DNA of 63,885 nucleotides, counting the filler, from Folioceros fuciformis (Eukaryota), in NCBI GenBank assembly GCA_049999805.1. It is 9 parts of 9 records of this genome, joined end to end, with 100 filler letters (N's around TTAATTAATTAA, not from the genome) between each part and the next. Parts side by side here need not be neighbours in the genome. Positions count along the whole stretch, not along the records: positions 1 to 3,219 come from JBNGIO010001291.1; 8 more parts are not named here. The stretch is one strand, 5' to 3'. This document shows, piece after piece, positions 3-58,784 of this stretch (position 1 is the stretch's first letter; each line of letters opens with the position of its first letter). A program made the translations under genes and the position numbers. The notes below the pieces were generated by a model that searched no databases, was not told where the DNA came from, and saw only the letters and a program-made list of their open reading frames with translations.

Positions 3-1742
3 GGGGGGTACCAGGGAGGGTATGGAAACCAGGGAGGGTTAGGGAACCAAGGAGGGTTAGGGAACCAGGGGGGCTATGGTAATCCAGGATATAGATCGCC
101 AAACCAGGGATTCTCACAAGCCGGTGGAGTGGGGAATGCAGGTGAAGCTGTAAATGGTTCCCAGTGGAGTAGCAGCTCGGGGGTGCAGAGTCAGGAGAGC
201 AGGTCATCAGTAGGTCCTGGAGACCCCAATGACACACAGGAGGCTCGTGATGCACGAGCACGGGAGATTTTGTCGAGACCTATTGGGGGTTACAGAGAGA
301 GAGTCCAACCTACTGTGTCGCTAGGTGGAAGAGGAAGGCCTGCGGTATCTCCAGAGGAACAGGCAAGACGGGACGAGTTGGCAAGACAGATTCTTGCAGG
401 GGAATTCGGTAAGAGCCGAGTTGTGCAGCCTTCTGCTCCCCAGGGAACCAATATTGAAGCAGGGGCCAAGCTTTCTGTCCATGAGTCTGTGAAGGAGGGG
501 AATATCAAGCCCGACGTGAGCAACAATTTTCCAAAGCCACCGAGTGTGTTGGATTCTGCAGGGAAAGGTGATGCGTGGGCGCAACCTACTGCGCCTCAAG
601 CAGCAAGGCTGGGTCCCATCAGTGCCAATCAAGACAGAGAGCAGCCTACAGTATTGGATTCTGTGGGGAAAACCGAGGCATGGCCGCAACCCACGGTGCC
701 TCAAGCAGGAAGGCCGGGTCCTACCAGTGGCTATCAAGATAGAGTGCAGCCTACAGCGGGCAGGCCCGGGCAACCTGCTGTTTCTCCGGAGGAGCAAGCA
801 GCTAGAGAAGAAAGAGCAAGGCAGATCTTAGCCGGGATACCGTCTCCTGCGACACCAGCTACCCCCCCGGCATCCTCTTCAGCTGTGTCGTCTCCAGTCC
901 CACCTTCCACACCATGGACGTCTCCGATCAATGCTGCCACGCCACTGGCTACCCCTTCAAGTGCAGCTACACCCCTGGCATCCTCCTCAAGTGCAGCTAC
1001 ATCTTTGGCATCCCCTTCGAGCACAGCTAAACCACTGGAGACCCGTCTTCCAGGTCCTCCAGCTGAGAAGGTTGAGGCATCAACAACCAATGTATCAGAT
1101 TCTGACCCGAGTTCAGAGAACGGAGCATCAGGGAAACCGAAGAAGGAGCTCTCTCCTGAAATGCAGAGACACCTGGAGATCTTGAAGGCTCCAATCAAGA
1201 TGAAGTCGTCTGCCTCGTCTGCATCTTCCTCCGGTGCTATTTTGGATGATGTCATCGAGGGCTCACTAACTGGTCCGAAGAAGCTGACGCAGAAGGAGAT
1301 CAGCTTGAAGGAGATGGAACCCGTGAACAAAGTCATCGATGAGATTTTGAAGGAAATCAGGGAGAAGAAGAAACTGAATCCAGACGGCCGGATAGAACCA
1401 GATTACATACCCCCTCCACCGAGGCCCCCTCCAGGGTCACAGAAGGGTCCCATCAGGAAGTACCCTCGCCACAGCCGCCGAGTGATTGAACAGGAGGGCG
1501 GGGAAGGCAACTTAGAGGACAACGCGGAGTACCATAGTGAGAAACTGGCCATTGCTTTTGGTCTGCTGAACATTCCCGCTCCAGCCCCCATTCGAGTTTT
1601 CAAGAATCTGCGGGTGTGTATAGACTGCCATGACTGGACCAAGGCTGTCACTAAGCTTACAGGGAGGGAAATCATAGCTAGGGATAACAACAGGTTTCAT
1701 CACTTCAAGGACGGCAAGTGTTCCTGTAATGACTACTGGTAA
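3..1742 (+). CDS. DYW-domain cytidine deaminase with long low-complexity/repeat N-terminus and no visible PPR repeats (5'-partial, single exon in window)
   Basis: Frame is open from base 3 ([29 protein letters not shown]...). C-terminus [12 protein letters not shown]...[11 protein letters not shown]...[20 protein letters not shown] carries the HxE, CxxC and terminal DYW motifs. Confidence 0.92.
540..755 (+). repeat. Coding tandem repeat, 105 bp / 35 aa x2 (not PPR-like)
   Basis: [35 protein letters not shown] followed by [35 protein letters not shown]. Confidence 0.85.
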
Positions 1743-2411
1743 GGTGATACCATCTTTAGGTAGGTAGAGTAAGAGTAAGTCCATCCGCTTCTGATAGACC
1801 AGGCTAGTGCGAAAGAAGTCGGCGTGCACGGCAACAATCCGAGCGCCTGCCTGCAGGCTACGAGAAAGTGGAATGAGAACACCTTGACCACCACCAACTT
1901 CGGATCCCTCACCCCGTGTCACCTTGGTTCCGAATCCACTACATTTGTAGGTGAGGCCTCCTCTCTGGGCGGTAGGAGACGAGAACGATGGTGTCTCCGT
2001 CGCATTAGGGCAACTACTGTCTCAGACTTCAGAATTCCGTGTGGCTCGACTTTCCTCTCTCATGCGTGCAGTTATTTAGCTCCTTTTCATACACATACCG
2101 GTTTAGGGGGGCCCGGTGTTGCACTACTCGAATTTCTCCGGTTCGATGGATCTTTCATCTTATTTTTCTAAAACAAATAAAAACTTCCCTCGAGTTGGTT
2201 GAACTACCCATATTCATATTCGAAGTCCTATTCCTCCAAGTCTTTGTGCTTGTTTTGGGATAGTATCTTTTTCGATTTTTTAACAAAAAATAATACACAA
2301 CAATCTATAAGGAAGGAAGACACTTATACTTTCATTTCATGTTAGCAAATTTGTTCTAAGAGTTTTTATTTCCTCTAAGGATTTTCTTTTGCACGTCTTG
2401 TAGATAGCTAC

Positions 2412-3219
2412 ATGGAGTTTGCAATATATCTTTGTGCAATCTTACTCCTATCAAATGGTTATTTCATTATGTCTATAGAAGCTCAAGAATCAATCGAGGC
2501 ACCACCACAAGATCTACCAAGTGATACTCCACCAACATCTCCATATGATACACCTCCAGTCTCCCCTTACCAGACCTCACCTGAGATGCCAAATGACATG
2601 CCTCCTCCTACAGGAGGGTCTGAGATGCCATACAACACTCCTCCAGACCCATTCAACATGCCAAGGCAAGTACCAAGAGACACACCTCCTCAAGACACGG
2701 AAGTTCCTCCAGGTGGAAACAGAAGACCAGGTCCACCATACGACAGGCCCCCCTACGACAGGCCTCCTTACGACAGGCCCCCCTACGACAGGCCTCCTTA
2801 CGACAGGTCGCCCTATGACAGGCCTCCATACGATAGAGACCCACAACAACCACCTCAAGGATCGCCACCAATTGGTACATATGTCATGCAGCTGTGTTTC
2901 ACCCCTCAGCTTGATCAATCATGGGAACCCACAATTCGAGCACTTGTTGGCAAAGCCATAGAGAATTATCCCCCAACTTTTTCAAAGAATTGGGCAGCAT
3001 CTGGATTAGGATCAGTTGCAGGGCCCAATGCTAGTCCTTACAATAACATTGCTAGTCTCCATTACGCAGCCACATGCACGTACAGGGAACCGGACATGAC
3101 AGATAGCTTTGCATGCCAACGTTGTCTTATGAACTTAGTTCGAAATTACGTTGAGATGCCAACCAGAGGGGACTGCGTTAGACCATCAGAGACCTCGATT
3201 GCAGTAATAGGGTGCTTAC
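2412..3219 (+). CDS. Secreted Pro-rich protein with C-terminal Gnk2/DUF26-like Cys domain (3'-truncated by linker)
   Basis: Hydrophobic signal peptide MEFAIYLCAILLLSNG, Pro-rich region with PPYDR repeats, then YAATC-x12-CQRC...DC...GCL, resembling the DUF26 C-x8-C-x2-C...C...C pattern. Confidence 0.65.
2733..2837 (+). repeat. 15-bp coding tandem repeat, (P/S)PYDR x7
   Basis: ccyccytacgacagg-like units read directly. Confidence 0.9.
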
Positions 3220-3319
3220 NNNNNNNNNNNNNNNNNNNNNNNNNNNNNNNNNNNNNNNNNNNNTTAATTAATTAANNNNNNNNNNNNNNNNNNNNNNNNN
3301 NNNNNNNNNNNNNNNNNNN
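3220..3319. other. Artificial contig linker
   Basis: N44-TTAATTAATTAA-N44, stops in all six frames. Confidence 0.97.
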
Positions 3320-5402
3320 GAGCAACGTGGTGGCTATCAAGACGCTCAAGAAGCAGCAGGGGCAGGGGAGGCAGGGGTTGCAACAGCGACAGGAACAACA
3401 ACAGCAGCAGCAGCAGCAGCAGCAGCAGGGGCAGAGGGAGCATGAGGGGCCGGCCACCAAGCGAGCCAGGATGGGGATGGCGGGAGGTGGGATGACGGTG
3501 TCGGAGGCGCTGGTGGCCAACGAGATTCTGGTGATGCAGCGTATAGTGGAGGAGGTGTCGCCCAATCCCAACGTGATCCACCTGCTGGACGTGTACGAGG
3601 ACGCAGGGGGGGTGCACCTGGTGCTGGAGCTGTGCTCGGGTGGGGAGCTCTTCGACAGGATCGTGTCGCAGTCGCGCTACTCGGAGCGGGAGGCAGCGGC
3701 CGTGGTGCGCCAGATCGCCAACGGGCTCAGGAGCTTGCACGAGGCGCACATTGTCCACCGGGACCTCAAGCCCGAGAACTGCCTCTTTCTCACCTCGGAC
3801 CCGGACTCCCCCGTGAAAATCATGGACTTTGGGCTGAGCCACATTCAGGAGGTCACAAGCCCCATTGTGGGCATGTTCGGCTCAATCGACTACGTAGCGC
3901 CCGAGTCCTTGCTGCGCAAGCCCGTGCTACCAGCTACCGATATGTGGTCCCTGGGGGTCATCCTTTACATTCTGCTCTGCGGGTATCCGCCCTTCCACGC
4001 GCGCACAAACCGGGAGAAGCAGGAGGCAATTCTTGCGGTAGGTAACTCCTCGTTTTCTCTTTCACCTTCCTTTCTCCCTCCCTCCCTCCCTCCCTCCCTT
4101 GCTAAAAAAAAAAAATTGCCGCTTGGGCTTTTGTCCTTTCCCTTTAGCAACAACAGGATTGCTTGCCTTGTGCGGTTGGTAGAGCCAGCATTGATGTCGG
4201 ACTGGGACTGCGGTCCTCCCCCAATTCTCTGCCTGCTTCATGTCAGGGTCGTTTTGACTTCTCAGATCCTACATGGGCCACGGTATCCCGATCTGCGAAG
4301 GACCTCATCTCCAGGTTGCTGGCGGTGGCTCAGCACCAGAGGCCCACAGCCCAGGAGGTGAGGGCAGCCCAGCCCAGCCCAATTTCCAATTCAATCCACC
4401 AGCATTGCTTTGCGTGACTATGTGTAGTCCCACGGTGGCCATGGCAGCTCCTGCAGCACCCCTGGGTGAGAGGGGAGGAGGCCAATCCGGAGCCGGTGGT
4501 GCCCCTCATATTTCAGCGCTTCCAGAAGTTCAATGCGCGCAGGAAGTTCCGGGCCGCGGTGCAGGCCAGCGTCATGAGCAACAAGCTGGTGGGCTCTGTG
4601 CGAACAAGCAACCTGAGAACCCTGGTAGGCTCCCAGGCTCTCAGCGCGGAGGAGCTGCGCAATCTGCACAAGCATTTCAAGGCCATGTGCGTGAGCAGTC
4701 TCTTCCTTGCTCGTCATTGCCTTTTCCACCTCCTTTCCTTACGTACAACATGTTAGCTTGCTGCGTGCAGATCAGGCAATGGCTCAAGCGTTTCTCTCAA
4801 GGAGTTCGTAGACGTACTAAGGGCCATGAAGAAGGATGCGCTGGTGCCTTTGGCTGCTGACATCTTCAAGCTGTTTGACGTCAATCGGGACGGGTCGGTG
4901 GACATGAGGGAGATCATATGCGGCTTCTCTCCTCTCAAGAAGCCTGAAGGTGACGAGGCCCTGCGGCTATGCTTCCAGGTGGGGAAGGACGTCGCTGTCG
5001 CCGCCCTAGCCATTAGGGGAGACAACTCTCTGGACAACTCATCAACTGAATTGAACTGAACTGTGTCGTCTCGTGTGGCAGATGTACGATACGGATGGAT
5101 CAGGGGCCATTTCCCGAGATGAACTGGCCGCGATGCTCAGGGTATGTTGAACAGATCTCCCTCCTCGGCACATGTGGAATGCGCTGCTCCAGATTCTTGA
5201 CCTCTAGATGCTGTTTTGCCTACAGGCTTTGCCCGAGCTTTATCTACCGCCTGACATAACGGAGCCTGGTAAACTGGACGAGATATTCGACCACATGGAC
5301 GCCGATAGCGATGGTCATGTAAGCTTTGACGAATTCAAAGACGCTATGCAGACCAATCACAAACTCAGAGAGGGAGTCCTCTTTCCACTTGGCCAGCCCT
5401 AG
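3320..5402 (+). CDS. CCaMK: Calcium/calmodulin-dependent protein kinase CCaMK (DMI3), 5'-partial; exons <3320-4037, 4247-4357, 4448-4686, 4771-4978, 5082-5141, 5226-5402
   Basis: CCaMK-specific NEILVMQRIVEEVSPNPNVI, HRDLKPEN, MDFGLS, FGSIDYVAPE, CaM-binding FNARRKFRAA, three EF-hands (DVNRDG, DTDGSG, DADSDG) and LPPDITEPGKLDEIFD. All GT-AG junctions splice in frame. Confidence 0.95.
3396..3428 (+). repeat. CAA/CAG trinucleotide repeat encoding Q11 inside the kinase N-lobe
   Basis: caacaa(cag)9. Confidence 0.95.
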
Positions 5403-9449: not shown

Positions 9450-11379
9450 CTACAGGTTGAGAGGATCCGTTTCAGAGTCATGCTCCTTCTCGATGGCCCA
9501 ATTTTCCACTGGCTCTGCAGTCAAAGCATATTCAGAATGTAAGAGTCAAATCATCCTCGAGTCCATTCCGCTCAACGGCAGGATAGGCAGAAAATGAAAT
9601 TACTGGTTCTTTGCTTCTCAGCAACTTGGTGGAGGCGGCGTTGGAGGACGGAGGCCATCAAGAGGAAGATGGAGCACATCCCAAACATGACTGTGATGGG
9701 AAAGGCATCGACCTGCGTAGCATACATATGGAGGCAAGGAGGGCACATCATACAGCAAGTCCCCAAGACAATGAAACGATGAAAAACACTTTTCCACGGT
9801 AGAAACGGATGTGACAGAAACTGGGAACAATAACAGTGGACGACTGCTTACGTTGTACAAGACGATGCAAACAAAAATGTTGAGAGGAATCCGGAAGAAG
9901 TTCATGATAGTACTTCTGGACTCCTCGGGAACGTACTGTGAGCGCATCTTCATAATGGATGGCCAGAAAATCCCGACACAAACCTCAAATACACAGAAAC
10001 CCAGAAGCTGCAACTGACCACCAGTGGTGATGCTGTTTCCTCTTGGGGTCTCTACCAGAAGCTGCAGACGACACACTCCAGAGTGAGCAATCATAGCACG
10101 TGTGAAGGAGGGAGAGGGGAAAGATGATTGGAATGAACAGAGGCATACACTGCTGATAATAACAGGGAGAAGGAGAGCTCCTGCGGAGATGAGGAAAACG
10201 ATCTGCATGTACTCTTCAACCTTAAGAGATGCTCGTGCCATAAGGCGAGCTGCAAGGGAGCTACCGATCATGGAAGACAACATAAAGGTGGCAAAGATGA
10301 AGCCGTGCGGAATCTGCTGGCCCTCAAGGGGGCTAAGAGCAGGTGTCCAGAGGAAGACAAAGGTGTACATTGAACCCTCGAAGAGAGACTGTATTGCGCC
10401 AAGGAGCGCAATCTTTTCATCTGCCAAACAAGGCAACACAGCAGAAAACATGGCACATTTACGTAAACTAGGGCAGGGCAGGGCAGCCCAGCCCATTCCA
10501 GCACAGCACAATGCACAAGGGTGGTGGGTCGAGAGGGCAAAGACACACATACCAGAAGCGATAGCGGAGGCCGCTTGCTTGAACTGCGTGAGAAGCGTCT
10601 TGCTCTCGGACGGATCCCCAAAGTTCTCAGGCCAGCTGTAAATGATGACGGACATGCCAATGGCGAGGACCACAGCCGCAGCGTCGAAGGGAGAGACGGG
10701 GCCGAAGCCGAAAGACGAGACGAGGGTGTTGGCCACAAGCCCAGCCAGAATAGCAGCCAAGCCATTCCCCAAAAAGATGGCCTTGGAGAAGGTGAGCGAC
10801 AGCCAGTTGGCCTCGTACCCCCTCTGCAAGGCAACGAAAGGCGGCACGGGGGGAAACGGGTGAGGAGGGGGTCAGATCCGGGGCCGGGTCTGGGACCGAG
10901 TACGGATCCGGATCTGGAACATGCAATGCGATGCGATGCAATGCAAGGGCAGAGCAGGGAGCAGGGCGAGAGCATTACTTTGAAATGCTCAGCCACGAGC
11001 CAGGACTCGAAGGCGGAGAAAAGCAGCGAGGTGGCAATGCCGCCCAGCACCCTCCCCAGCATGAGCACCCTGTAGACCGGGGAATGCTTGGTGAAACAGC
11101 TGAGGATGTAGGTGATGCAGTAGGTGATGCTGGCCCTCCTCCGCCCACTGCAAGCGGGCGCGGCCGCAGCCGCGACGATGAGCACACGCAGAGGCAGAGG
11201 AAGCAAGGCAAATGAGGGGAATGGGCTCACTCACTATCTATCTGCAAGGGATCCGACCACGGTGCCGAAAAGCATGGAGGAGCCGAATCCGGCGATGAAG
11301 AGCCTCCCGATGTCGACTTTGGTATACTTGTAGTGCGCGTAGAGCGCGTAGACGTAGGGCCCCTGCAGCCAGTCCCCCG
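9450..11379 (-). CDS. MOT2: Molybdate-anion transporter MOT2/MFSD5 (DUF791, MFS); first exon not in contig
   Basis: GDWLQGPYVYALY, GFGSSMLFGT, LLFSAFESWLVAEH, SLFEGSMYTFVFLWTP, RSTIMNFFRIPLN. Last exon ends ...SETDPLNL* at 9450. Confidence 0.9.
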
Positions 11380-22061: not shown

Positions 22062-22928
22062 CTAAGTAATATAGAAACAATAAACACTTACTTGAGGCGC
22101 GACAGTAAGTGTTTTCGAACAGTGGACAGTGGCAGAAATTGCAACCCGCTTTGTGAAGGCGTAGACAAGCACGCCATTTCTGGCACCTGCAGCCGCGGGA
22201 TGTCTGTGGACTACTTGGACGTTGAAGTGCTTGGAGGCCTTTTTGAAAAACTGTGAATCTTTTTTCCACCTCCTCAAATGTGCCAGTAGGACCGGAGCAC
22301 CAAAGTCTCCGTCCCCGGAGCCCACCAGCCACTTGAGAGTGCGAAGCAGCGGATCAAATAAAGTGGCATAGTAAACGACATCGGACGCCAGAATGAGGTC
22401 GTATGGCGCGTCCAATGCCTGGACATCTTCTTGTACCCCCCACCTGAGCGTCCGCGCACTCAAACTTCCTCCCGCCCGCAATACGTCCGCCTCATTCAAG
22501 GCCACGTTGTGCATCAGGTTGGGGAGTACATGAGGCAAATCCGTTAGGAGCACCTCCGCACCCAGGCGCGCAGCCATCATGCCCACCATCCCTGTTCCTG
22601 CCCCGAGCTCCAGTACCCTAAACCTGCCTGCTGCATTCCACTTGGGTCCAGGAATGAGCGCCGACAAACCCTCGACGCCGCACCGCTCTTCCAAGTACCA
22701 GCACAGCACGGACGCCGCAGGCCAGAGCTGGAATGACAACCCTTTCGCCCGCAACTGTCTCACCAAGATCGGTGCACGGTTCTCCAGTAACCGCATCTCG
22801 TAGCCCACCTCCACGGTGTCCGCATTCACATTCGCTTCCGCATTGTCCCCTTCTCCTCCTTCCTCCCCAGTCTCTGTAAGGAGCAGGCTGTGTGCCGCCA
22901 ACTCCTCTGACGAAATGGTGTCTTCCAT
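22062..22928 (-). CDS. METTL21A-like protein lysine methyltransferase (Methyltransf_16)
   Basis: GLSFQLWPAA, motif I VLELGAGTG, LTDLPHVLPNL..N, LRWG, DLILASDVVY, HLRRWKKDSQFFK. ATG at 22928 preferred; the frame is open to 23150. Confidence 0.9.
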   Translation of the reverse strand: MEDTISSEELAAHSLLLTETGEEGGEGDNAEANVNADTVEVGYEMRLLENRAPILVRQLRAKGLSFQLWPAASVLCWYLEERCGVEGLSALIPGPKWNAAGRFRVLELGAGTGMVGMMAARLGAEVLLTDLPHVLPNLMHNVALNEADVLRAGGSLSARTLRWGVQEDVQALDAPYDLILASDVVYYATLFDPLLRTLKWLVGSGDGDFGAPVLLAHLRRWKKDSQFFKKASKHFNVQVVHRHPAAAGARNGVLVYAFTKRVAISATVHCSKTLTVAPQVSVYCFYIT

Positions 22929-23661
22929 GCTGCAACGGACCTGGCGTCGGAATCCGGGCTTGAGTCTTTTAACCAAAGGAAGATTTGAAACTCTGCTGAA
23001 AGGAGATGATTTCTTTCTCGAGGCAACAGGACAAAGGGACAAATATAGAGTGCATCGTAGCTTCACACGATTGTGACAATTTTGCATGCATCCAACAAGT
23101 GTATTCATATCACCTGAGGTTCTGAAAAGTAACGTACATAGAGAGGTCATCTGAGTCTAATGCTCATGAGATAACTTGGGCCTCCTGCGAATTCACAGAC
23201 GTTTATCGCACCAAGAAGGCAACCTCCCCCTGATGCTCCCGTTGAAGCCAAAACTATTCATGACCTTGACAGCACATTGGCACGCTGAGGGCTGACCAGC
23301 TTCCTGAATCCTCCAGCCCCATATGCCCTTTTCCGGCGGCTTTCACCCTAGGTGAGAGGGCTCTCACTCTAAACTGAGTGAGTCTGCAATCACCAGGCAG
23401 GAAACATTACGATCCAGAGTGGCAGGAACCTCCAAGGACAAAAAAAAAAATCTTGTAGTGAAAGAAAGAACAGTCGGGACCGAATGCTAGCGGCTAGCCT
23501 AATGCACCTACAGCACCACCAGTCCAGGAGAAGCTCCTGATACCTACATGAACTGTGCAAGCGTGACGACAGTGAGTGGCTGCACACTGAAGGGCCACGC
23601 CCAGGGGATGCGTTACCCGCACACAGTAAGTAGCTGCTCTTCTCCACAAAAAGGTCGTGCC

Positions 23662-25112: not shown

Positions 25113-28100
25113 TTATATTTCGAAATACTTCGGGTTTGTGGGAAAGTTGTACTCCGAATGCAGCTGCCATTCCCACTGCATGGGTCAGTTCGGTTGACAA
25201 GGGATGTACCAGAATGTTAGAAGACCCTGTAATGTCCCACCAAATGCTCTCTGCTTACCTTGCCTTCATCAGAATCGGATTGTCTGCGGGGAAACACTGC
25301 TCGGAGATCACCATATATATAAAATCGTCGCTCGTCCTGTGAAGCCTTGGGTCCTGGGCTCATGGATGGAAGCCCATCCAAATCATGGCCACCTTGAGAC
25401 TTGCCTCTGGTCTTCACAGGCGGGCATGTAAATCGTATTTGAAGAGCATAACGGAGCATACTTCCGCCACCCTCTGAGTTCCCACAGCAAAGATTTGCTG
25501 TCTTGGTAATGGTGCAAGCCTTGGCTGAGTGGGTCCGACTCAAATCTGCTCTGACAGTCTGGGTGTTGTCTGTGGAGCAAGAAAGACTGGCTGCATTTGC
25601 ATAGCTCGGAAGTTGCTTGGATCGAGAACTGCGTTCACTGACATCTACACCCATGTCACCGGGCTCTTGCACATCTGTGCTGCTCTGCTGCTGGGCTCCC
25701 GTGCTGTACAAGCCCCCCTCCTCCGTATTAACATTGTTGGTGCCTGGAATTTCTCTACAAACCTTACGCCGAGGAATTTTCATACTGCTTGGAGACCCCT
25801 TGCCTGCTAGTGAGACTTTGTGACGTAGAAATGTCTACAAAAGGAAAACCCAACAAACAGTTTGCAAATTAAGACAACAGATAGCAACACAAACGTTCAT
25901 CCTACCAACTGTCCCCTGCAAAATATCACTCACCTTGGTACCCGGTGGCATGTCCGTCAAATCATAGCTACAATTGAATGTATGAACAGGAGTTAGTTCG
26001 GGGTTGCTAAGAACCTGCAGAGGAACAACTCCATCTCATTATCCAACACTCGTTCTCAAAACAGCACCTCTGACAAGGGTGAGACAGCAAACAATCAAGC
26101 AATAAACACACACGAGGGTGGGAAGAATGAATTTAGTACCAATTGTATGCGGCCCCTGCTTGGAATTCGATAGCGATTTTTTACAAATTTGTTGTCGACA
26201 GTGCCCTTGTCACCCTTGAAGTTTTCAGTGGTCATCGTACCTCCCAGATCAATGGATGCATAGTACAGCTGTGAGCTATCTCCATCCACGCAAGTGACAG
26301 AGAAGGGCAGCTTCTTCATAGTTGGGAACCAGCTTCCACCAGTTACACTCAACAGAGCCAGAAAACCATGGATCCTCTGCAAGATCGACAGCTTTTGCGT
26401 CAGTTCCCATGTGATGCTCAGATATACCAAATGACTGCACAGGACAAAGAGTGCACATCTGCCTGCCCATCCCTTTTGGCTGGAATGCCAGGTCGAGGAT
26501 AAGGAAAGCAGAGAAAGCCCAATGCAATTATGTCTGAACATCAAAGAACTTGCAGGCAGACATACTAACTGAAAGCAGTGATTACGATACGCAACACACC
26601 TGCGAAGGCTTTCCAGACAAGAAGCGCCCTGACAACAACGACTCTTCGAAAGATCCCACTAATGACCTCCGGACAGATGTTCCATGTCCGGAAGACTTCA
26701 ATGCTGAGGAAGATACTGAATGGAACTCAACTCCAGAGCCACCTCCAGCATTTACTTGCTTGAAGGTGGTGCCTGGCGTCCAATATCGGCAAGCATCGCC
26801 AGTTTCCTCGAACACTCTCCCATTTGCTTCCTCTAGTACGTCTTCGTCAACCAGGTGTCCTCGTAGATAAAACGAATCTGGAAATGAATGCCGCCGGCTT
26901 GGTGGGGAATACATGCAAGCTCTTGACTCCAGTACTCTCGTTCTATTAGGAGACACCCCAAGGGAAGTTGAGCCAGATCGAGGCCCAAGAGGTGAGAGAG
27001 ATAAAGCAGGTAAGGGGCCACTAAGAGATGACCTGACATTTCTCAGAAGTATTAATTCGCCATCAGTGGAACCTGTCTCCACTGATTTATGCACTGGATA
27101 TTCAATCAATGCAGATTGGACATCAGAAGTTAAAGCTCCACGTTCGAAACTGTCACCTACCTGACTGGTTAACAAAGGTCCATCAGTGCGTGCACCAAAA
27201 TAATCTCGAGCCAGCAGATGTGTCCTTGTATGCAGATCCTCAGAGGGCCTAGGGATTGGAACAGGCGTGCTTGCTTGGCTGCAATTCAGTGAGTTCTCTA
27301 CCATTAACATGGTGGAAGACAAATTATTGTCACATGGGCTACTGGGCATCAACAGTGAAGCACGTGCTGGAATCAAGCAATTAGCCATCATCCCATAACT
27401 AGAACACTGTTCAGCAGCAGAGGAGGTAGAAAATGGCAATGGACATATAGGACCATCTGAATGCTCAATCATATGTTCACCTCGTAAAGTCATTTGAGTG
27501 CTACGAAAAGTCCTTGACGTAAAACCAGGCGGGCTTGTGCAGTCGAGTGTGACTGGAACATAATATGTCCCACTTGGCACACAGCTCTGGTCCGCATCAC
27601 AAGCTCTTGACACTGTATGATTGCTCGCAAAGCAGACTCCTCCAGTTCCTTCTTTTAGCTGACAGAATTCGTCTCCAAGATTCAACTTCTGAGTAGTCGT
27701 CAAACATCCTATACTTGCAAACTCAGGAACATCACTAGATCTGTTTTTCACAGCTGCTGTTGAGGAAATTTCTTGTGTTCCTCTGCATCCCACTCCTGCA
27801 TCTTTACTCTTAGATACGGTGCAAGCACTCTTGATGTCCTCCCTCTGCAGGGAGACGTCGCCTTCCACCACAACTTCACAACCATCCATTCCTCTGCCAT
27901 GAACTTCTTGCCTTCCATTATGCAAATCAAAGCCTGACTCAGGTGCAAGGAGCTCCAAAAGAGGCGATATACTCTTCTTTCTGGTTGATACATTTGGGCG
28001 CTCATTTGATCCAGAACACCTTCGGGCAGCTGGCGCTATTCCAGGCAAATCAAGGTCAGAGGTATTTACTCTAATCGTACTTTCTTTAAGTTTGGTCTCT

Positions 28101-28699
28101 GAGTCATCGTCCTTAGGACCTACAGTTTCGGTAGGTGAAGCAGTCTGGCAGACTGAGATGGCGGGATCGAATCCCAGAATGATTGAAGTCGGCTCATCTG
28201 ACCCATGGTGTGCCTTTTCACTCTGCCCCCTGCTGCCTTTCCCAGCAGCAGCAGTATGAGATGGGGGTAGATATTCCCATACTGCTTTGCCGGGTATCAG
28301 AGCCCTCTTAACAGATAGGTCGGCAAGTGCTCTCCAGCCTGACCCTGCTTTGCTGCTGCTTGCAACAGTTCCTGAAAGCTCTTCTACAACATTTCCACCA
28401 GAGCAGTCATTGTATTCCGAAGTGCTACTATATCTCCCTACAGGAAAAGCTGATGATAACACCGGTTGCTTAACACAGTTTCCATGCCCGGGATTAGGCA
28501 ATCTCTCCATCCCGAGTTTCTTGCTCGATCCCATTACAACTCGGGGAAGCGGCACCACAACGTGCTGGTCCTTTCCCCTGCAAACAGAACTATCCTCATG
28601 ACTACACCCACTACCCGCTCCAGAGGGCTGCTTCTGCGTGCATATATTCAGAATCACATGCCCACCTGATGCTTCGTCACCAGGATGGGGCAGCCCCAT
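25113..28699 (-). CDS. FAM214/ATOS-family protein (DUF4210 plus chromosome-segregation domain), multi-exon
   Basis: MGLP start, [80 protein letters not shown]. Last exon [16 protein letters not shown]. Confidence 0.9.
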
Positions 28700-29941
28700 C
28701 CTTTCCACACAACTACAGCTACTACGTCGCTGTGAAGCTCAACAACTCTAAAATTCCATCTTCAAGGGACCCAACACACTACTATGCACCGCAGTGCCGG
28801 GTGCTCTTGGCTACAGATAGCTTACAACGCTTTCAATCCATCGAATAACTTATCGTAGTCACTGCACACATATCACCAGATAACTAGAGGAGGTCACCAC
28901 ATAACTAAAGGAGAACTACTGCGGTGAGCCCCATCCTGCTCTCGATCTGGGGCACAGTCCTCCATCCTCGAAACCAATCGTGGAAAGGCAGCACGTTCTC
29001 TTTTGCTGTCTTCACAACGAGCCACAGTCACTCCACAGCTGGAACTATACGCTCCCAAATCATCCCATCTCAACATGGTCAAGAGACAATCAAAAGGGTG
29101 CCATCACCGTCTCCGAAGCTCCAACAAGCCAGCCAGGCCAAGCTCACCTGACATCACGGCCCACATCACTTTCTGCCAGCATCTCCGATCAACCGAACTG
29201 AAAGATTAGGTCACCAATCTTCGACACCACCTTCCCAGCCTTGCTCTCCGCCCACAAAACCCGTCCAATTGTCTCTAATCATGGACCTCGCGTCGAGAGC
29301 TGGCAGGATGACCACCAGCAGTTCATCCTGCCCTTCGAGAAACCCCATCTTCCCGGGAGATGGGGATGAGACGAGATCCAAAAGCGGAAAAACCCGTCTG
29401 TCCAAATTCCAGAATAGGAAGCGCACAGGATCCGTTCATTCCCCCTCACTCAAACTCGGATTGCCCCACGCAAGATCTCGAAAAAGCAAAGCCTTCTTTA
29501 GAGCCCCTCGCTCCGTCTGTCACCGCAGTCCAGCGAGTCCATCAATCGAATTGCGGTCCAACTCCAACTGGAACCCGACCGCCAGAGCGGAACAAGACTG
29601 AAGCAAGCGGCAGGCCAGCCGCCCAACGCCCCTGTCATCGCCCACCAGACCAGCCAGCGTCAGTTGCGTACAGAATTGCAGCAAGGCGGGGAGGCGGACA
29701 AGGAGCTGCCGCCGGCCTGCACAGATCGCTTGGCCTTCCTGTGCCCGCATTACGAAAAAAGCAAAGCAATGCAGACCAGCCAGAGCCTCACCAGCGAGAG
29801 CCGCTGCTGCGGAGCTCGCCCCATCTCTGTGGGGCGATGCTCTCCTTCCTTGCTGCTGCTCCACTCCGAAGACCGAATGCGGAAATCCGCCCCGAGGCCA
29901 AGGACGATTCGATTCGACTAAGGTGGGCTGTGGGCGGCGAC

Positions 29942-30584: not shown

Positions 30585-33500
30585 TCACTGAGGCCTGTCC
30601 CAACTGGTTTCAGATGTGGATAAGTTGCCGTAGTAGACTTCTCCCGAGGAGCTGTCCCAGAATGCCTGCACAAGCACGCAAGAGGGGTTCGCAGTGTGAC
30701 GTTTCTGTTGCACGATTGATATGAGCGACTTAATGGGGGACGTCTATTTTTTCTGTACCTGCCATCCTGAAGGCAGACCCTTCTCGAGCTCCTTCAGATC
30801 AGGCTTCTCTACCTTGCACCCCGCAGTTTCACTGGACAAAGATTTTGTCTCCGTCTTTTTGGCACGTTTCACTCGCTCCCTCCTGTAGCCAGAGGCCAGG
30901 CTCAGTGAGGCGTAATGGACTCGTCAGTTGCACCCTGAACTCCATACCGCTTCCCAAGCGCGAAGAGGGCCACTTACCAGTCTACGATCCCCAGAGGTTG
31001 AAAGTTTGCATTATCCAAAGCACCTCCACTAGCAAGTTGCTCCCGTCGCCATTCCTAGGAAGAGATTGAATTGTTAACACTGCACTTCGGGCCAAAGAGC
31101 TGAGGACACTTCTTGAGAAGACTAGCACACCAGTCCGTAATACCTCAATCTCTTTCTGCCGCTTTTTCTCCATTGCATCAATGTCATACTTGTCACTTTC
31201 TTCTTCATCGCTCTCTTGAAGTTCCTCCTTCGCTGCTATCCACTGTTCTAGGGCAAGCAGAGTCATTACTCAATGAACAAGACCATGCTTCAGATTCTGA
31301 GCACAACAACAATAATCTCTGGAAAATAAAGTACCTTATTAACCAAGTTTGACACCTTTTTATTAGACCGAAGAGTAGGAGCAACAGCTGTGCTATGTGG
31401 CCTTTTCTTACCGCGGCTAACTGAAACTTAACAACAGCACGCACAAAATGAGGCAAAGGTGGCAAAGGAAAAAGCAACGGCTGTCACCAAAAGTTGTTCC
31501 AACAAATTACAATTCTCACCTTTCGACGGTTTCTTTGCAACTGTACTCGTGCTAGCACTCTCTGCTGCTACCGATGGGGCAGATTCCTTAACACATATAG
31601 AAGGTTTCGAACTTCCTTCATCAACTTGGTCAGCTTTTGGCTCAGACCTTACATTTACAGCAGCGCCTGTCCAGCCATTTGCTCCGCCATTCACAGTCCC
31701 ACTTAAAACAGCGTTTACTGTCCCATTTGAGACACCATTTGCTGTCCCACTGACCATCCTATAACCATTCAAACTCTGCGCGTAGTAGTACACGCTTGGT
31801 GCTGAAAAATAGCTGTAGGAGGTCCCCGGCATATAGTGGGGAGCTAGTGCAGTAGTAGCAGCGAAGTCACAAGTATATTCAGGAGGAGGAGGGGGTGGAG
31901 GTTCATCCGGAGGCGGGGGGGGTGCGATGTCAGGATCAGGAGGTGGTGGCGGTACCCAATCATCATCAGGAAGAGGAGGTGGAGGCGGGTGTTGTTGCCA
32001 GACATCAGCCATCACTGGCATTGAATACATGGACAACGGGAAAGGCAAAGGATACTGAGATAATAAACCAGGGCCAGCAGACCCTGCATTTGAGGGATCC
32101 CCATAGTTGACAATACTTTGAACACAATAATCCCCTGTAGGAGCAGATACAGATGCCACTGCACGTTCCTCGTCACCCACACCGTCGTCAACATCCATAT
32201 CGACTTCCATGTCAACTTCGTTACTCACATCCAACGGACCAGCATCACCTAGGTCCACAGAGTCATCTTGAGGATCAATCAAGCAGGCCACAGATGGCTC
32301 AGCATGCTGCTGTAATGCCAAAGGTTGGACAACATTTCCTGCATGCACTGAGGAAGGTGCTGTTGAGTCGATTGGATTCTCTTGGCTGATAAGCCTTCCA
32401 TCCTCGACAGCCTCATCATCCCCAGGCCTTACTGACTCAGTTGGGGCCCCATCATCAAACTCAGTTTGCTGTTCTTGAGGCTCCCTGTCCTCCGCATCAT
32501 CACCAGTGTCTGAGTGCTGGGCAGAAACTGGAGGACGAAGTGCCCGGAAACCTGTCCTTCCAGCTTGAGGGGCCTCATAACTTGAGCCCGCATGCAATGA
32601 CTGGAAACTTCTTTCTAGTATCCTATCCACTGCATCTTGCTCAGACTCAGGTGATGCAGCAGCTTCCTCCACTGGAGTACCTGACTCCAACCGTTTCAAG
32701 TGCTCTTCACTATACCGTCTGAAAGTTTCATCCAAACCCCCTTCAGATGCCAGAGTTTGGCAATCTGATACTCTGATCCTTGCTTCAATTGCAACACGGA
32801 CACACAACGGAATCGCTTGCAAACTATCCCTGCACAACCAAAGAGGCCAAATTAGGAAAAACGTATTCGAGACTAAAGTGCTATACAAGATATAACACCA
32901 AAGGAGATCGCCAGCCAAGGGATGGGTAGCTAAAGCGAACCCTGCAATAACTTCCAATCGACATGCTAAAGACTCTCCCCAGTCAAGGAATCGCTTCAGT
33001 TGTTCTTCAATTCCTCCAACGTTTCCCATCAAAGCAGCCACACCTGAGCGGGTCTCAGAGTTGTTACACTGCACTCCATCGGAAATAACATCTCTCTCAC
33101 CCGCTTCTTGAAGGTGAGACGTGTCTTCTACATGAGCTGAATCCAATACTTCCAGGGATGTGGTGGTTGCCTGCTCAGCTGACAGACCATTCAGTTCGCT
33201 CGAGGATGTGTTATCCAAACTAGTGTTCTCCCCCCCGACCTTCTGAAGTACCGGGACTGCAGGTTGAGCATCACCTTGCCTGCTAATACTTGGTCCTTCT
33301 GATTCCAATTCCTGTGGAAGAATGCCTGCAGGCTCAGATTCTAGTTCTACGAATGGCATGGACTCCTCACCTCCATCCTGTGCTGTTTCAGCAATAGAAG
33401 GATCTGTCGGGTTCCCTTGTTTTGGAATGCCAGCAGCTACCACATCCGCCAGGTGCTGATCCAACACCAACACGTGTTGCTCTTGAGACAGAGTCCCATA

Positions 33501-35059
33501 ATCAAGTCCTGACGCACTTTCCCTTAAGTTAGTCGAAGCAGGCTTCTCCCAGGTAGTTTCACCAGTCATTGTGTTCCAATAGTAATAATCTCGACTCTCA
33601 GGATCGAGCACAACTTTCCACGCCACAGTCCCATCGTAAATGTGATTCTCCGGCATCACCCCATTCGCATTTGGTCTAGACAGGCCATTGGAGATCTGGT
33701 GCCTCCATAAGCTCTCATCTTTCGTCTCCTCCTTATCCTCCATGGGCTTCGCCACAGCCAAATCTTCGACACCTCCCACCTGCCCATTGACTCCAGCGGT
33801 TTGCGCCTTGCCAACTTCAACATCCGCCCGTGTGGGGCCTCCAAGTTCATGTTCCAGCAGGCCACTCGTCCGCAAATCTGCCATGAAATTTGCCATCTTC
33901 ATGGCGGAACAACTGCGTCAGCTCAACGACCCAGAGGGGCAAAGGAAGCACCTCCTAAAAGTGAATCAGAGACTCACTCCAAGCCCTCGAAACCAGCTCC
34001 CAATATCTCACCTGCTCATCCACAGGACGAGGTGGCAGTGCAATGTGCCTTCTCGTTCCATTCTCTAGCCGTGGTACCGCTGTATCACATTCTTCCTCCT
34101 CGTCCTCGTCACTGTACTGCCCCAGAAGTGACAGGGGGTTTTCGGTACTCGCACCTGCACCTGCATCTGCACAACCCACACCTAATGAACGCCGGAAGTC
34201 ACATCCTTAAAAGATGACAAAAAAGAACTGAGCGTTAGCTGCATCGGCCTTCGTGTGAGTCAGCGGTTTGTTTACATCGACAACAAGTCATGCTGAGCGT
34301 TAGGAAAACGGACGCTACTAGGGTTCTAAATGGTGTGCTACGTTCTATGCAGCAGCCACCTGCTGTGGGACGTAGCAGAAGAGAGCATAAGACAAACGAC
34401 ACACCCGACAGTCTCATGGCAACGGGTCAGGTTAACAAACCAAACAAAGCCAGAAACATACGAACCGAGATGGCAATTGCTGCCGGCTGCATTCTCCACC
34501 CGCTCTGGTTCAGTGAACGTTGCCCTGTATGGCCATACTGACAAAGTAGAAGCAAGCCTGACCTCAACAAAGCTGAATGTCATTCAATTTTCCCTGCTGC
34601 TTGCCGCCCTGATCTGACCCTTTGTTGGTTCCCAACATCAGGGCCACCCTACAGGCCCCAGAATCAACCTCTCCAGCCACAACTCTGGAGGTATCTGAAT
34701 GGTCCCAGAACGAGTGCCTTTGCATGCAAGGCAGTGCTTGCATAGGCACCATGGAGGCAAGCCCTATAAACCCACCTGGAAGCAGTCGTGGAGACGGTAC
34801 TCCAGCGCTGTTAAACTGACTCTCATCACCGCCGATTTGATCGTTTGCACCAGTTTCTGCATCACTCAACATGCCAAACAATCAACCACGACTCCCGTAC
34901 CAAACCCCACGCCACCAGCAACCACAGGACCTCATCTGCACAATATTACTTACCAGAGGAAGAATTCAAATCTAGGTCTTCATCCCGCGAAAGATCAAGC
35001 TTCACCCTACGAAGCCCACCGCCCAAGGTGCCATGCCTACGATCCCGCCTCTTTCCCAT
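30585..35059 (-). CDS. FNBP4-like dual WW-domain, Pro-rich nuclear protein (multi-exon)
   Basis: MGKRRDRR..RRVKLDL, NPLSLLGQYSDE, WW1 WKVVLDPESRDYYYWNTMTGETTWEKP, poly-Pro, WIAAKEEL..EKKRQKEIE|EWR, NFQPLG, WW2 LPSGWQ|AFWDSSSGEVYYGNLSTSETSWDRP. Confidence 0.88.
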
Positions 35060-35807: not shown

Positions 35808-37235
35808 TTAAGAACAATCTCGAGGCTCAAAGTATAATTTATGATGCGGCAAATCATATGCTATGTAAGACCCTCCCAATTGAAACACTCCTAATATATT
35901 TGTGTGTCTAGCTCTTGTCATCGCTAAACACATAAGATATCTGTTAGAGTTTTTTTGGTCATACAAGAAACCAAATGTCTGATGGGTCCCAAAAGTCCAA
36001 GCAACGCTGTTATCAAACTCCATTGTGATGGAAGGAACAATTGGATTTTGGGCTCCTGTTATATCAAAGCATAACTCAAAAGAAGAATAAGATGCTTGAA
36101 TGATTGGATACATAATCTGCCTCTTAAGCTCACTAATCAAGGGGTTAAATGCAGCCTCAACTAATGTAGTAAATGTGGTACCTGTGTCAATGAACGTTCC
36201 TCCATTCCCATTGGCAATCTGAAATGCAGTGACCGGAATGTGCAATAGAACGTTATTAACGTAAATGTTTACTATTGTAAGGTAATAGAAGTCAGGATAA
36301 GATGGGTTATAAGAAATTGTTATGGATCTCATTGAAGGGATTCCTTGCAGTGCAACTTCACCAAGTAACAGATATCCTGGTTTTTTCTTATTAGCACCCA
36401 TAATTTGTGGTAAGCACATACCAAACACTCCGTCCACTTCAAGCTGTGTGATGAACGAGAATTCCGACCTTCCAAGGCCGAGTATCCCCGACGTGTCATC
36501 GGTAAACTGCCCTGTTTGGAAGTCACCAGCTCCGAAAACAAAATTTTTATACAATAAAATGTGGTCATGGTCATCAGGGCTTGTGATAGTTAATGTTTCA
36601 TATGCCACAACACCACTTGTGGACTCCACACCTAATCCATATTCTAAATAATATTCACACTTTCCCGAGTTAATGGAGGAGGAGTCTTTCTCACATTTTC
36701 GTTGTGGTAGTAATCCTTTCTTGATGCAATATGGGTCTTGGCATGATAGTGGATTGTAGGAGCTTGATTTGTACGAGAAGAATTTAGGAACATTGCTTCT
36801 ATAACAGTCGATGCAAGGATTGCTTTGAGTCCATACAAGACTGCTACCTGTGTCTAATATGAGTTGAAGAGGTTGTGGAGGAGTTCCTAGATTAATTGTG
36901 CTGTAATAGATGCCGGAATTGTGAGCTTCTTCGATAGGATATATGTAATCACCTTTAAGTATTCGGTTGGCAATAGAGATATTGTTGTTATTGTGGAACA
37001 AGTAATTAGCCTTTGTCATGTCTCGTTTAGCTTGTAACTCCCAGTGACTTATATTTGCGAGCTTTCCATTAGAAAAAAGATGTGGCTCGCGCTCGTGTAC
37101 ACTAATTCGCAACGATGGTTTCTTCGCGTTTTCCTTTCTTAATCCACTGCAATCCCATTGACCACATAATCCACTGGTGAATAAAGGTGTGCAAAGAGTG
37201 AACAAAGCATGTATAACTAGTATTGCATTCCACAT
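35808..37235 (-). CDS. Secreted A1 aspartic protease, nepenthesin/CDR1-like (intronless, AT-rich)
   Basis: Signal peptide; catalytic LILDTGS and FIDTGT; GILGLGR; Cys-rich insert; ILGVFQ..YDL..LYFEPRDCS. Confidence 0.93.
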   Translation of the reverse strand: MWNAILVIHALFTLCTPLFTSGLCGQWDCSGLRKENAKKPSLRISVHEREPHLFSNGKLANISHWELQAKRDMTKANYLFHNNNNISIANRILKGDYIYPIEEAHNSGIYYSTINLGTPPQPLQLILDTGSSLVWTQSNPCIDCYRSNVPKFFSYKSSSYNPLSCQDPYCIKKGLLPQRKCEKDSSSINSGKCEYYLEYGLGVESTSGVVAYETLTITSPDDHDHILLYKNFVFGAGDFQTGQFTDDTSGILGLGRSEFSFITQLEVDGVFGMCLPQIMGANKKKPGYLLLGEVALQGIPSMRSITISYNPSYPDFYYLTIVNIYVNNVLLHIPVTAFQIANGNGGTFIDTGTTFTTLVEAAFNPLISELKRQIMYPIIQASYSSFELCFDITGAQNPIVPSITMEFDNSVAWTFGTHQTFGFLYDQKNSNRYLMCLAMTRARHTNILGVFQLGGSYIAYDLPHHKLYFEPRDCS

Positions 37236-38235
37236 TGTGCTTGCTAATAGTTCTTCAACATTTGATTATGTTCTATGCATAGATTTATACTTTATACTTT
37301 ATAGCATTGTAAGTTGTATACAAGTCATCTAGAATGTTTGAAAAGAATATGTTTTATATAGATATTTCATTCAAAATCTTGTCCTACTGTGATTGTGTAG
37401 AGTATCCATGTGTAATTGGACTTTCTATCGAGAGTTTATTTGCATAGATTATGAAAAATATGAGGCATTTCTATTGAAATGGTTTGTCAAGAATATAGTT
37501 ATTAAATATGTGAGTTTTCAAGGATTTCAAATGGAGGGAGTTTTTTTTTGTAATTCATTATTATTTTTTGTGCTTAAAATATCTAAGAATATCTTACATT
37601 GTGAGTATGCATAGTTTTTGGAGTTATATTTTACCAATACATGTTGGACAAAAATGGACCAAAAGATCCTTTCATTTTGAAAGACGAAAGAGGATTCCTT
37701 TTTGAAAGAGGAGAAGGAATTTTCTTTTCCAGAGAAAAAGAGCCTAGTCTCTTTCATGCTCAGCTCTTAATAGTTGTAATATATTAAAAAAATAAAAACT
37801 CTAAAAATAAAGAATATTTTGTTGGATACATGAGCAGGTAGAACAAACCGTTGTTTCTTACCAAAGCATTGTTTCTTGGCATACTCCAAGCGTGGTACGT
37901 TAGGTACGAAGACTTATAACTTGATCGTTGTTTTACAGAACGATGGATGAATTATCCTAAGCATAAATTGACCTTGATCACGCTTTCAGGTTCAAAATGA
38001 ACAAGCGATCATGCAGAACAATTGCCTGCCGAAAGCAGGGTGTTGCAGGAAGCGTTGCTACTGTAGATTTTGGTGATGGCTGCAACTGTCTTTTGCACAG
38101 AAAACGTCATGTGCAGCTGTGGCTGCCTTTCTTCGTTGACAACAGATGTGAAATGGTGCCCCGTTGCCTGAAGTATGTTTTTCAGAAAATGTGGGTACCA
38201 AAAAGTCTGTCTGCGATGACTGGGACATGGGACTA

Positions 38236-57988: not shown

Positions 57989-58784
57989 TCCCCCCCGTCC
58001 CTCACCAACACAAAAGCAAGTGCCCGTTGTTTAACGAGAACTCTGCCACTAGCTCAAACGGTCGAGTGTCACCACCACTTGGTGCGGAATAGTTTCATCC
58101 ATCTGCAGGCAAGGAAACTACATGCTTTTCATCACCAAACCATCTCGGGCGCACCTCACTCTCACAAGCAACTGAGGGAATGCCTTAATGCCGTGAGACG
58201 GCCCGTCGATCCTTTGCTAGAATCATGTCTCACAGGCTCTGCCCATGCAACCTCGGCTCGGTCGGTCGCCACCTTCTTGTCGGCACGATCTCAGCATTTC
58301 GTTACCTGCATTATGATTCAGGTGTTGAACATGTTTCAACCCTATTTCGGCAGACGACGATTATGAAACCAAGTGTCAAGAATATACAAGAATATTGAAT
58401 GAATATAATTAAATATAGATATTTTCCGCTTTTGGTCGGTTTGGGGTCAAGTTTCGATGCGTTGAAGCCCCAAACAAGGCCACTCCCTTACCATAGTCAT
58501 TGGTCGCGAGTCGTGGCACCAGAAGCCCAAAACGGGGCTCGCTTGTGCCGTCCCTTTTCGTGGCCGTTCTTTAATACATTAATACATAGCCTTCTTTTCG
58601 ACTAAATTTTCCGATGTATGTATAGATCATAAAAATGTGATTATCAATATGGAGTCTTTATAATAAAGACAAGAGATGGAAACTTATCTACTCCTAACAA
58701 AAAGCGGAACCTGGTGAAGAGGTCCACCAAACCTGGTGAGTAACATTAACATCTACAATGGAAATCTAATCTCTGGTCAGCCTT

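Follow-up and report, generated by a model that had tools for sequence, protein, structure and literature searches.

A DYW deaminase protein without PPR motifs or PG box in Folioceros fuciformis as a candidate trans-supplied catalytic half

The frame at 3–1742 and its deaminase end

The DNA analysed in the present study, a stretch of 63,885 nucleotides from Folioceros fuciformis (GenBank assembly GCA_049999805.1; hereafter the window), begins with the 3′ part, 1.74 kb long, of a nuclear land-plant gene. The frame, at 3–1742 on the plus strand, comprises 579 codons and a stop and is open on its 5′ side, where the gene continues beyond the window; the encoded product is termed P0001. Judged from its sequence and from a structural model, P0001 ends in the catalytic two-thirds of a DYW-type cytidine deaminase, with the first two beta-strands missing.

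The sole Pfam family in P0001 is DYW_deaminase (PF14432), matched by residues 510–579 over positions 24–93 of the 93-position profile (E = 2.2e-31). The deaminase core without PG-box strands occupies 1530–1739 (+), as marked by the Pfam match, by PDB matches and by a predicted local distance difference test (pLDDT) score above 90 in the model, and phmmer aligned the core with the PDB entries 9kfx (1.2e-29), 7w86 (5.7e-28) and 7o4e (1.9e-23). The HxE(x)nCxxC catalytic zinc signature is present as HSE at residues 511–513 (1533–1541) and CIDC at residues 539–542 (within CIDCH, 1617–1631), with KNLR between them at 1602–1613. The second zinc site and the terminus are present as H543, H566/H567, C573, C575 and DYW at residues 577–579, corresponding to HHF at 1698–1706, CSC at 1719–1727 and DYW at 1731–1739, before the stop codon at 1740–1742. 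These second zinc-site residues and the terminal DYW, the roles of which are described in PMC7611903, align with those of OTP86 and DYW1.

In the 509 residues before the core, Pfam found no PPR, E_motif or Eplus_motif at E ≤ 1, and P0001 by the same analysis has neither the PPR tract nor the E1/E2 motifs of a PLS-class PPR-DYW protein. Degenerate PPR motifs of the type seen in DYW2 and MEF8 were detectable by Pfam neither in P0001 nor in its relative P0002, described below. A preliminary description of this DNA had reported intact HSE (from 1533), CIDC, HHF, CSC and DYW motifs, which were found where it had placed them, and a DYW core accompanied by no PPR, E1/E2 or PG box, which the Pfam and alignment results bore out. 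Its estimate of about 450 residues for the upstream region has to be raised to about 509 before the Pfam match, though that region is PPR-free as claimed.

The absence of the PG box was assessed in an alignment (A1) of P0001 and P0002 with 85 canonical PPR-DYW proteins. Both P0001 and P0002 have gaps opposite the block PG.SWIE..VH.F..GD.SHP, and the close match of P0001 to canonical DYW domains resumes at AEYHSEKLA. The PG box was judged missing because the Pfam match begins at profile position 24, no Eplus_motif accompanies it and A1 has gaps at the block; the position of the PG box is occupied by conserved non-PG sequence in all four family members that reach it. In OTP86, the PG-box region precedes the gating domain and is part of the deaminase fold, and the gating domain itself is an insertion, H837–G891, directly before the catalytic His (PMC7611903).

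The last 205 residues of P0001 were modelled with AlphaFold2 as three strands and two helices, compared with five strands in OTP86. The pLDDT of the model exceeds 90 in the last 70 residues, is about 70 in a helix at model residues 61–81 and falls below 50 in most of the remainder. This helix, P0001 residues 435–455 (1305–1367, +), aligns in A1 with the DYW gating helix alpha-1. Between it and the pre-HSE segment, P0001 has some 19 Pro-rich residues that canonical DYW domains lack (1410–1475, +; bounds approximate); this insert takes up the beta-finger region of the gating domain and has a pLDDT below 50. The top Foldseek match of the model in the PDB was the Arabidopsis DYW1 domain 7w86 (94 columns, E = 2.9e-8), followed by the synthetic PPR-DYW protein 9kfx and OTP86 (69–70 columns, root-mean-square deviation 0.8–0.9 Å). 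According to a review from 2026, the DYW domain of DYW1 is truncated, comprises four strands, has no PG box and depends on CRR4, and that of OTP86 comprises five strands (PMC13041630).

The core is the last part of a family-specific conserved module, residues 383–579 (1149–1739, +), recognized by its identity to P0002 and P0099 and in a five-sequence alignment of the family (A2). The module runs, in order, from LD.L.AP through LDDVIE.SL, the helix, PDGRIEPDY and the Pro-rich insert to the DYW core, and P0001 is 84% identical in it to P0002 over 198 residues and 69% identical to P0099. Residues 383–512, which precede HSE, are 81% identical between P0001 and P0002 and are thus conserved like the core. 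Both these approximately 130 conserved residues and the incompleteness of the fold had been overlooked in the preliminary description.

Ahead of the module, P0001 has at least 380 residues of repeat-rich, low-complexity sequence. GNQGG(Y/L) hexapeptide repeats, rich in G, N, Q and Y, occupy 3–83 (+), where Tandem Repeats Finder detected an 18-nucleotide unit in 3.4 copies at 10–70, and the array goes on upstream of the window, with G-Y-G-N-Q-G-G-Y units in the loose ends of contigs from sequencing runs X1, X2 and X11. Two tandem 35-residue repeats rich in P, Q, G and A lie at 549–756 (+; a 105-nucleotide unit in 2.0 copies, 81% matches), and Ser/Ala/Thr/Pro decapeptide repeats at 928–1038 (+; a 30-nucleotide unit in 3.7 copies). 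Ser makes up 13% and Gly, Pro and Ala 12% each of residues 1–382; in residues 281–382, the proportions are 24% Ser, 19% Pro and 17% Ala. Disorder-promoting residues account for 60–80% of each of the thirteen 30-residue blocks of residues 1–390. Repeat detection and composition thus showed the GNQGG(Y/L), 35-residue and Ser/Pro/Ala repeats described earlier to be real. The 35-residue repeats were considered as PPR motifs and rejected, being rich in P, Q, G and A and having no Pfam PPR match; the 35-residue period that they have in common with PPR motifs is a coincidence.

The region before the module is unalignable between P0001 and P0002 except for one short charged, E/A-rich motif, ...AR.ILA/S.P.G..R..V.PT, at 231–329 (+), found by regular expression and tblastn; residues 304–336 of P0002 match it with an E value of 5e-4 (tblastn). 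P0001 has three copies of the pattern R.IL[AS] itself, at residues 87, 128 and 273. In the whole window, the matches of seven tblastn queries, namely four PPR-DYW proteins (two of them PDF-PPR-DYW proteins), P0119, an OSB-like protein and P0002, were confined to the DYW core and this motif.

Relatives of P0001 and the PDF motif of P0002

A word-indexed search with all 579 residues returned 97 matches, 96 of which list PPR Pfam domains and cover only the last 12–25% of the query; P0002 was the only one to extend beyond the core. P0002 (609 residues; Logan) starts with M, has DYW as its only Pfam domain and is the sole apparently complete relative. It was also the only protein found, among 525 candidates, by a search with residues 383–512 of P0001 alone. 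A HMMER search with P0002 as query, covering 1.84 billion representatives, returned 2442 matches at E ≤ 1e-3, nine of them at E ≤ 1e-30, and added P0099 (226 residues; query positions 415–609) and P0101 (147 residues). A search for short proteins gave 40 matches at E ≤ 1e-25 among 960 candidates, and only two of the 40, again P0099 (69% identity, 99% coverage) and P0101 (59% identity, 71% coverage), extend upstream of the core. The 90% cluster of P0099 includes P0248, a 265-residue open reading frame (ORF) from a Trinity transcript of the hornwort Nothoceros aenigmaticus (EukProt). P0248 is the only named family member, and its transcriptome origin shows that one member of the family is transcribed. 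The Selaginella context suggested previously was not supported, for no Selaginella family member was found even though S. moellendorffii proteins were in the databases searched, and a Selaginella origin was rejected because the only named member is from a hornwort.

In P0001, P0002, P0099, P0248 and P0101, Pfam detected only a partial DYW domain (profile positions 24–93) and, in none of the five, a PPR, E or E+ motif; the control proteins P0104, P0106, P0119, P0131 and P0198 all scored PPR. Alignment A2 has 68 columns invariant in all five members, among them H511, E513, K534 (the K of KNLR), C539, C542, H543, H566/H567, C573, C575 and D-Y-W, and contains the family signature IRK(Y/F)PRH.R...EQEG.EG.LE..AEYHSE.

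A quick maximum-likelihood tree was built from 255 DYW cores over 144 columns, DYW1 itself not being included, and 117 of its 243 inner branches are unresolved. A protein was removed beforehand, 50 of 305 in all, if it lacked HxE..CxxC, if its sequence from HxE onward was shorter than 66 residues or if under 70 residues stood ahead of HxE, P0101 being retained. The five proteins form one clade (SH-aLRT 95), which joins neither the PDF-PPR-DYW proteins described below nor two angiosperm atypical DYW proteins, P0124 and P0164, which we read from their sequences as DYW2-like and DYW1-like. The DYW phylogeny proposed earlier as a check accordingly set the family apart as a distinct clade without grouping it with the sampled angiosperm atypical DYW proteins. 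P0030, an At3g11460-like PPR-DYW protein of Dioscorea, came out as the sister of the family in the tree; this placement was rejected in view of the small number of columns, the unresolved branches and the shortened gating region of P0030. P0102 and P0103, which rank high in the HMMER search with two matched stretches, were rejected as family members, being tandem-duplicated DYW models; each has two tandem copies of a PPR-E-DYW end, and both are likely gene-model or assembly artefacts.

Residues 102–161 of P0002 carry LWKLYFSNPAAWWDNRLRKKNPSEPDFVKK...PAWV, which by its pattern, W..NR..K.NP..PDFKHK...LW, can be assigned as an OSB-type PDF motif near the N-terminus. Of the best 150 HMMER rows obtained with P0002, 13 have their best stretch in this part. 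The repeated motifs of P0105, named “protein OSB3, chloroplastic/mitochondrial-like” at NCBI, and of P0107, both of which have an SSB domain, line up with the same residues, and the PDF region gave no usable match in the ESM Atlas. The Ser- and Arg/Lys-rich N-terminus of P0002 looks like an organellar presequence. A PDF motif suffices for single-stranded DNA binding in AtOSB1 (PMC6963530).

One PDF motif, complete or truncated where the gene model begins, likewise precedes the PPR tract at the N-terminus of five ordinary PPR-DYW proteins, P0104 of Sphagnum compactum, P0106, P0131 and P0198 of Diphasiastrum complanatum and P0119 of Selaginella moellendorffii. A single text search across about 8.4 million papers found none combining ‘DYW’ and ‘PDF motif’. 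Given the PDF-PPR-DYW genes of Sphagnum, Diphasiastrum and Selaginella, the family may plausibly have arisen by deletion of a PPR tract, from a PDF-PPR-DYW ancestor that lost its PPR-E-PG segment.

Contigs of run X1, from the same organism, cover 42–1998 with four mismatches, the contig being 2702 nucleotides long. A contig of organism B aligns with 123–1748, with 172 mismatches and no gaps over 1626 nucleotides, and a contig of organism E aligns with 902–1749, with 77 mismatches. The organism B differences listed in 155–512, in the low-complexity part, number at least 35, of which 18 are synonymous and 17 are not; among the differences listed, a crude ratio of nonsynonymous to synonymous differences (pN/pS) of about 0.31 was obtained for P0001, which is indicative only. 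The stretch at 1743–1998 (+) is a possible 3′ untranslated region of uncertain bound, the X1 contig stopping at 1998 where DNA run X2 continues. As X1 is only guessed to be an RNA run, this is at most a weak hint, and the X1 contig was not counted as evidence that P0001 is expressed; the gap in X1 cover at 2034–2354 was likewise not used as evidence. A second X1 record (same organism, 2879 nucleotides) matches only 1455–1475 and 1698–1741 and diverges over an equal length between the two; it is presumably another DYW-domain gene.

A proposed trans-supplied catalytic half and its alternatives

By analogy with flowering-plant editing factors, we hold it to be probable, if only just, that P0001 is an organellar, trans-supplied catalytic half that is completed by the E2/PG-box end of E+-type PLS-class PPR proteins. 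In the scenario that we propose, P0001 would enter an organelle, where it would by itself be unable to form the whole deaminase fold or to locate editing sites. The E2/PG-box end of PLS-class E+ PPR proteins would complete its fold in trans, and these partners would supply site recognition, with P0001 serving as their shared catalytic half. The G/N/Q-rich and charged repeats may help P0001 to meet its partners or organellar nucleic acid, and a PDF motif, if P0001 has one, may help in contacting either. A PG box and the beginning of the gating domain are part of the E+ domain (PMC11897456), and the E+ subgroup of PPR proteins is reported to be enriched in hornworts (PMC13386178).

The scenario is consistent with the pattern of conservation in the family, in which the upstream region is unalignable with P0002 whereas the catalytic and zinc residues are invariant in all five members. 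A complex prediction of P0001 residues 430–579 with the E1-E2-PG-box piece of Sphagnum P0104 scored 0.50, compared with 0.01 for the best control, and provides weak support for the predicted pairing. The runs agreed in at least 45% of contacts, with a partner pLDDT of at least 57. Of 78 solved complexes, 51 attain the mark applied to such predictions, as do 2 of 108 mismatched pairs; at values of 0.60 or less, only 5 of the 78 solved complexes attain it, and so do all 4 of the passing mismatches among 180. Because the partner was a moss stand-in and intact DYW domains have been solved, the pass may reflect mere likeness.

Several points weigh against this interpretation. The predicted pairing is one with a moss stand-in, and the seven tblastn queries found no PPR gene within the 63.9-kb window. 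The part of P0001 that would hold its own transit peptide or PDF motif lies 5′ of the window. The tree links the family specifically to neither DYW1-like nor DYW2-like proteins, and the P0001 core, as counted from the alignments, is 58% identical to DYW1 but 65% identical to a synthetic consensus PPR-DYW protein; the analogy to DYW1 is therefore one of architecture rather than of demonstrated descent. The fold could instead be completed in cis, by the approximately 130 conserved residues that precede HSE, and the model, with a pLDDT below 50 across most of this stretch, is silent on the matter. The pN/pS of about 0.31 rests on only the organism B differences listed, and none of the listed runs is recorded as RNA for the P0001 copy, the support for transcription coming from P0248 only.

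The half domain might instead have been kept as a non-catalytic binding module that docks on PG-box or editosome proteins to regulate, scaffold or titrate them, or might serve in another RNA step, such as was once proposed for DYW domains. An incomplete fold with three predicted strands and no PG-box strands would suit such a role, as would long low-complexity regions, which are typical of scaffolds. We nevertheless regard it as unlikely, as the invariance of the zinc ligands, the catalytic Glu and the DYW-specific Lys in all five members is hard to explain without catalysis. DYW1, by the title of a 2014 report by Boussardon, is said to need its HxE..CxxC signature for editing, and it is equally incomplete (PMC11897456). 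Less probable still, in our judgement, and to be called very unlikely, is that the gene arose as a by-product of evolution, when a DYW fragment moved by retroposition or exon shuffling was joined to an unrelated low-complexity gene, and has no editing role. PPR genes have spread by retroposition in hornworts and lycophytes (PMC13386178), and PDF-PPR-DYW proteins are known in Sphagnum, Diphasiastrum and Selaginella, but origin says nothing about present function, and in at least four sequences the module retains 59–84% identity and every catalytic residue.

The conservation of residues 383–512, at 81% identity to P0002 as conserved as the core, speaks for a self-sufficient, loosely targeted deaminase, in which these 130 residues, or a homodimer, complete the fold and the PDF motif or low-complexity region brings in single-stranded RNA or DNA; the PDF motif of P0002, which is of a kind sufficient for single-stranded DNA binding in AtOSB1 (PMC6963530), points the same way. 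However, the model, at low confidence there, puts no linker strand into the sheet, an untargeted organellar deaminase would be mutagenic at the RNA level, and a PPR tract specifies each plant editing site known so far (PMC11897456), which leaves this explanation decidedly unlikely. The frame open at the window edge, with the 5′ end out of view, would also admit a canonical PPR-DYW gene, the PLS array, E1/E2 and PG box of which lie in 5′ exons off the window, with the low-complexity sequence an odd linker or a misread intron. We consider this extremely improbable. The PG box normally stands directly before the gating helix, where conserved non-PG sequence is found in four of four members, and the organism B contig is colinear with the window, with no gaps through the low-complexity part. 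The caveat raised earlier, that a PLS array might be hidden upstream, is largely answered by P0002, which starts with M and has no PPR in its 609 residues; as to PPRs far upstream of the window, the X1 contig adds only 745 nucleotides beyond window position 42, in which no more than about 248 further residues would fit.

In hornworts, hundreds of sites are edited, in both directions. These plants are reported to be enriched in E+ PPR proteins, which lack the catalytic end (PMC13386178), and a conserved PPR-less, PG-box-less DYW protein in hornworts is a concrete, testable candidate for the missing enzyme. In the literature passages surveyed, no PPR-less DYW protein is described outside seed plants; trans-supplied DYW deaminases are characterized there only in flowering plants, as DYW1, DYW2, MEF8/8S and PCW1 (PMC11897456, PMC9522420, PMC5295000), and trans assembly in ferns is merely inferred from domain counts (PMC13263110). 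As a more doubtful, though possible, extension, the family may be the missing general catalytic subunit of hornwort organellar editing, a single half that completes the active sites of many E+-type PPR proteins and that arose independently of DYW1, DYW2 and MEF8 from a PDF-PPR-DYW ancestor, with the PDF motif and the multivalent low-complexity repeats bringing it to organellar transcripts. If this is true, split editosomes would have evolved at least twice, and without MORF proteins, the seed-plant specificity of which, as assumed from the outset, agrees with PMC13386178. The OSB PDF-motif link is a second lead, the motif being present also on ordinary moss and lycophyte PPR-DYW proteins.

Elsewhere in the window, an ORF at 2412–3260 (+) encodes a hydrophobic N-terminus, a Pro-rich body and seven tandem (P/S)PYDR units, has no Pfam family and meets an N gap at about 3264–3320. 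It is followed at 3276–4361 (+) by a Pkinase domain (E = 3e-46) after a poly-Gln run, probably one exon of a multi-exon gene. Long ORFs on the minus strand mark the stretch as gene-dense; they include an MFS_5 transporter fragment (9618–10871), a Methyltransf_16 lysine methyltransferase ORF (22062–23156), a 718-codon ORF with no Pfam family (26582–28738), an 829-codon ORF with a WW domain (31428–33917), a TAXi-type aspartyl protease ORF (35808–37265) and an intact-looking ORF of 501–515 codons for a DDE_Tnp_4/Plant_tran (PIF/Harbinger-type) transposase (56483–58030).

Comparison with known editing systems

The flowering-plant protein DYW1 is short. Like P0001, DYW1 (7w86) is a PPR-less, PG-box-less truncated DYW protein, and HxE, CxDCH and DYW are intact in both. 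In Arabidopsis, DYW1 has no PPRs and no PG box, and CRR4 contributes an E2 motif and a PG box that complete the substrate pocket of DYW1 (PMC11897456). P0001 has the domain content that defines a DYW1-like trans-deaminase, namely no PPR and a truncated DYW domain without a PG box (PMC11897456, PMC13041630). It differs from DYW1 in its at least 509 residues before the core, mostly low-complexity repeats, and in the conserved pre-core region of about 130 residues with a Pro-rich insert that it shares with its family, as well as in the PDF motif present in P0002.

DYW2, MEF8/MEF8S, maize DYW2A/2B and PCW1 supply a deaminase in trans to PPR-E+ or PPR-E proteins (PMC9522420, PMC11897456), DYW2 being a truncated DYW protein that serves PPR-E+ proteins (PMC11897456). 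Unlike P0001 and P0002, in which none is detectable, these proteins keep a few degenerate PPR motifs. All of them, MEF8, MEF8S and DYW2 included, are Gln-rich in an N-terminal region proposed to mediate interactions (PMC9522420, PMC11897456), and deletion of residues 62–125 of MEF8 impairs its function (PMC9522420). The comparison with DYW1, DYW2 and MEF8 drawn in the preliminary description is thus apt, DYW1 being the top fold match and these Gln-rich N-termini paralleling the G/N/Q repeats of P0001.

Compared with PPR-DYW proteins of the OTP86 type (7o4e/7o4f), the HSE-to-DYW core of P0001 superposes at 0.8–0.9 Å over 69–70 columns with 58–59% identity, but P0001 has no PPR tract, E1/E2 or PG-box strands and has a 19-residue insert in the gating region. 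The likeness to OSB proteins lies in residues 102–161 of P0002, which match the PDF motifs of P0105, P0107 and the PDF-PPR-DYW proteins, whereas Pfam found no OB/SSB domain in P0002. Taken together, P0001 differs from DYW1, DYW2 and MEF8 in its repeat-rich region, its pre-core module, the PDF motif of its relative P0002 and its lineage.

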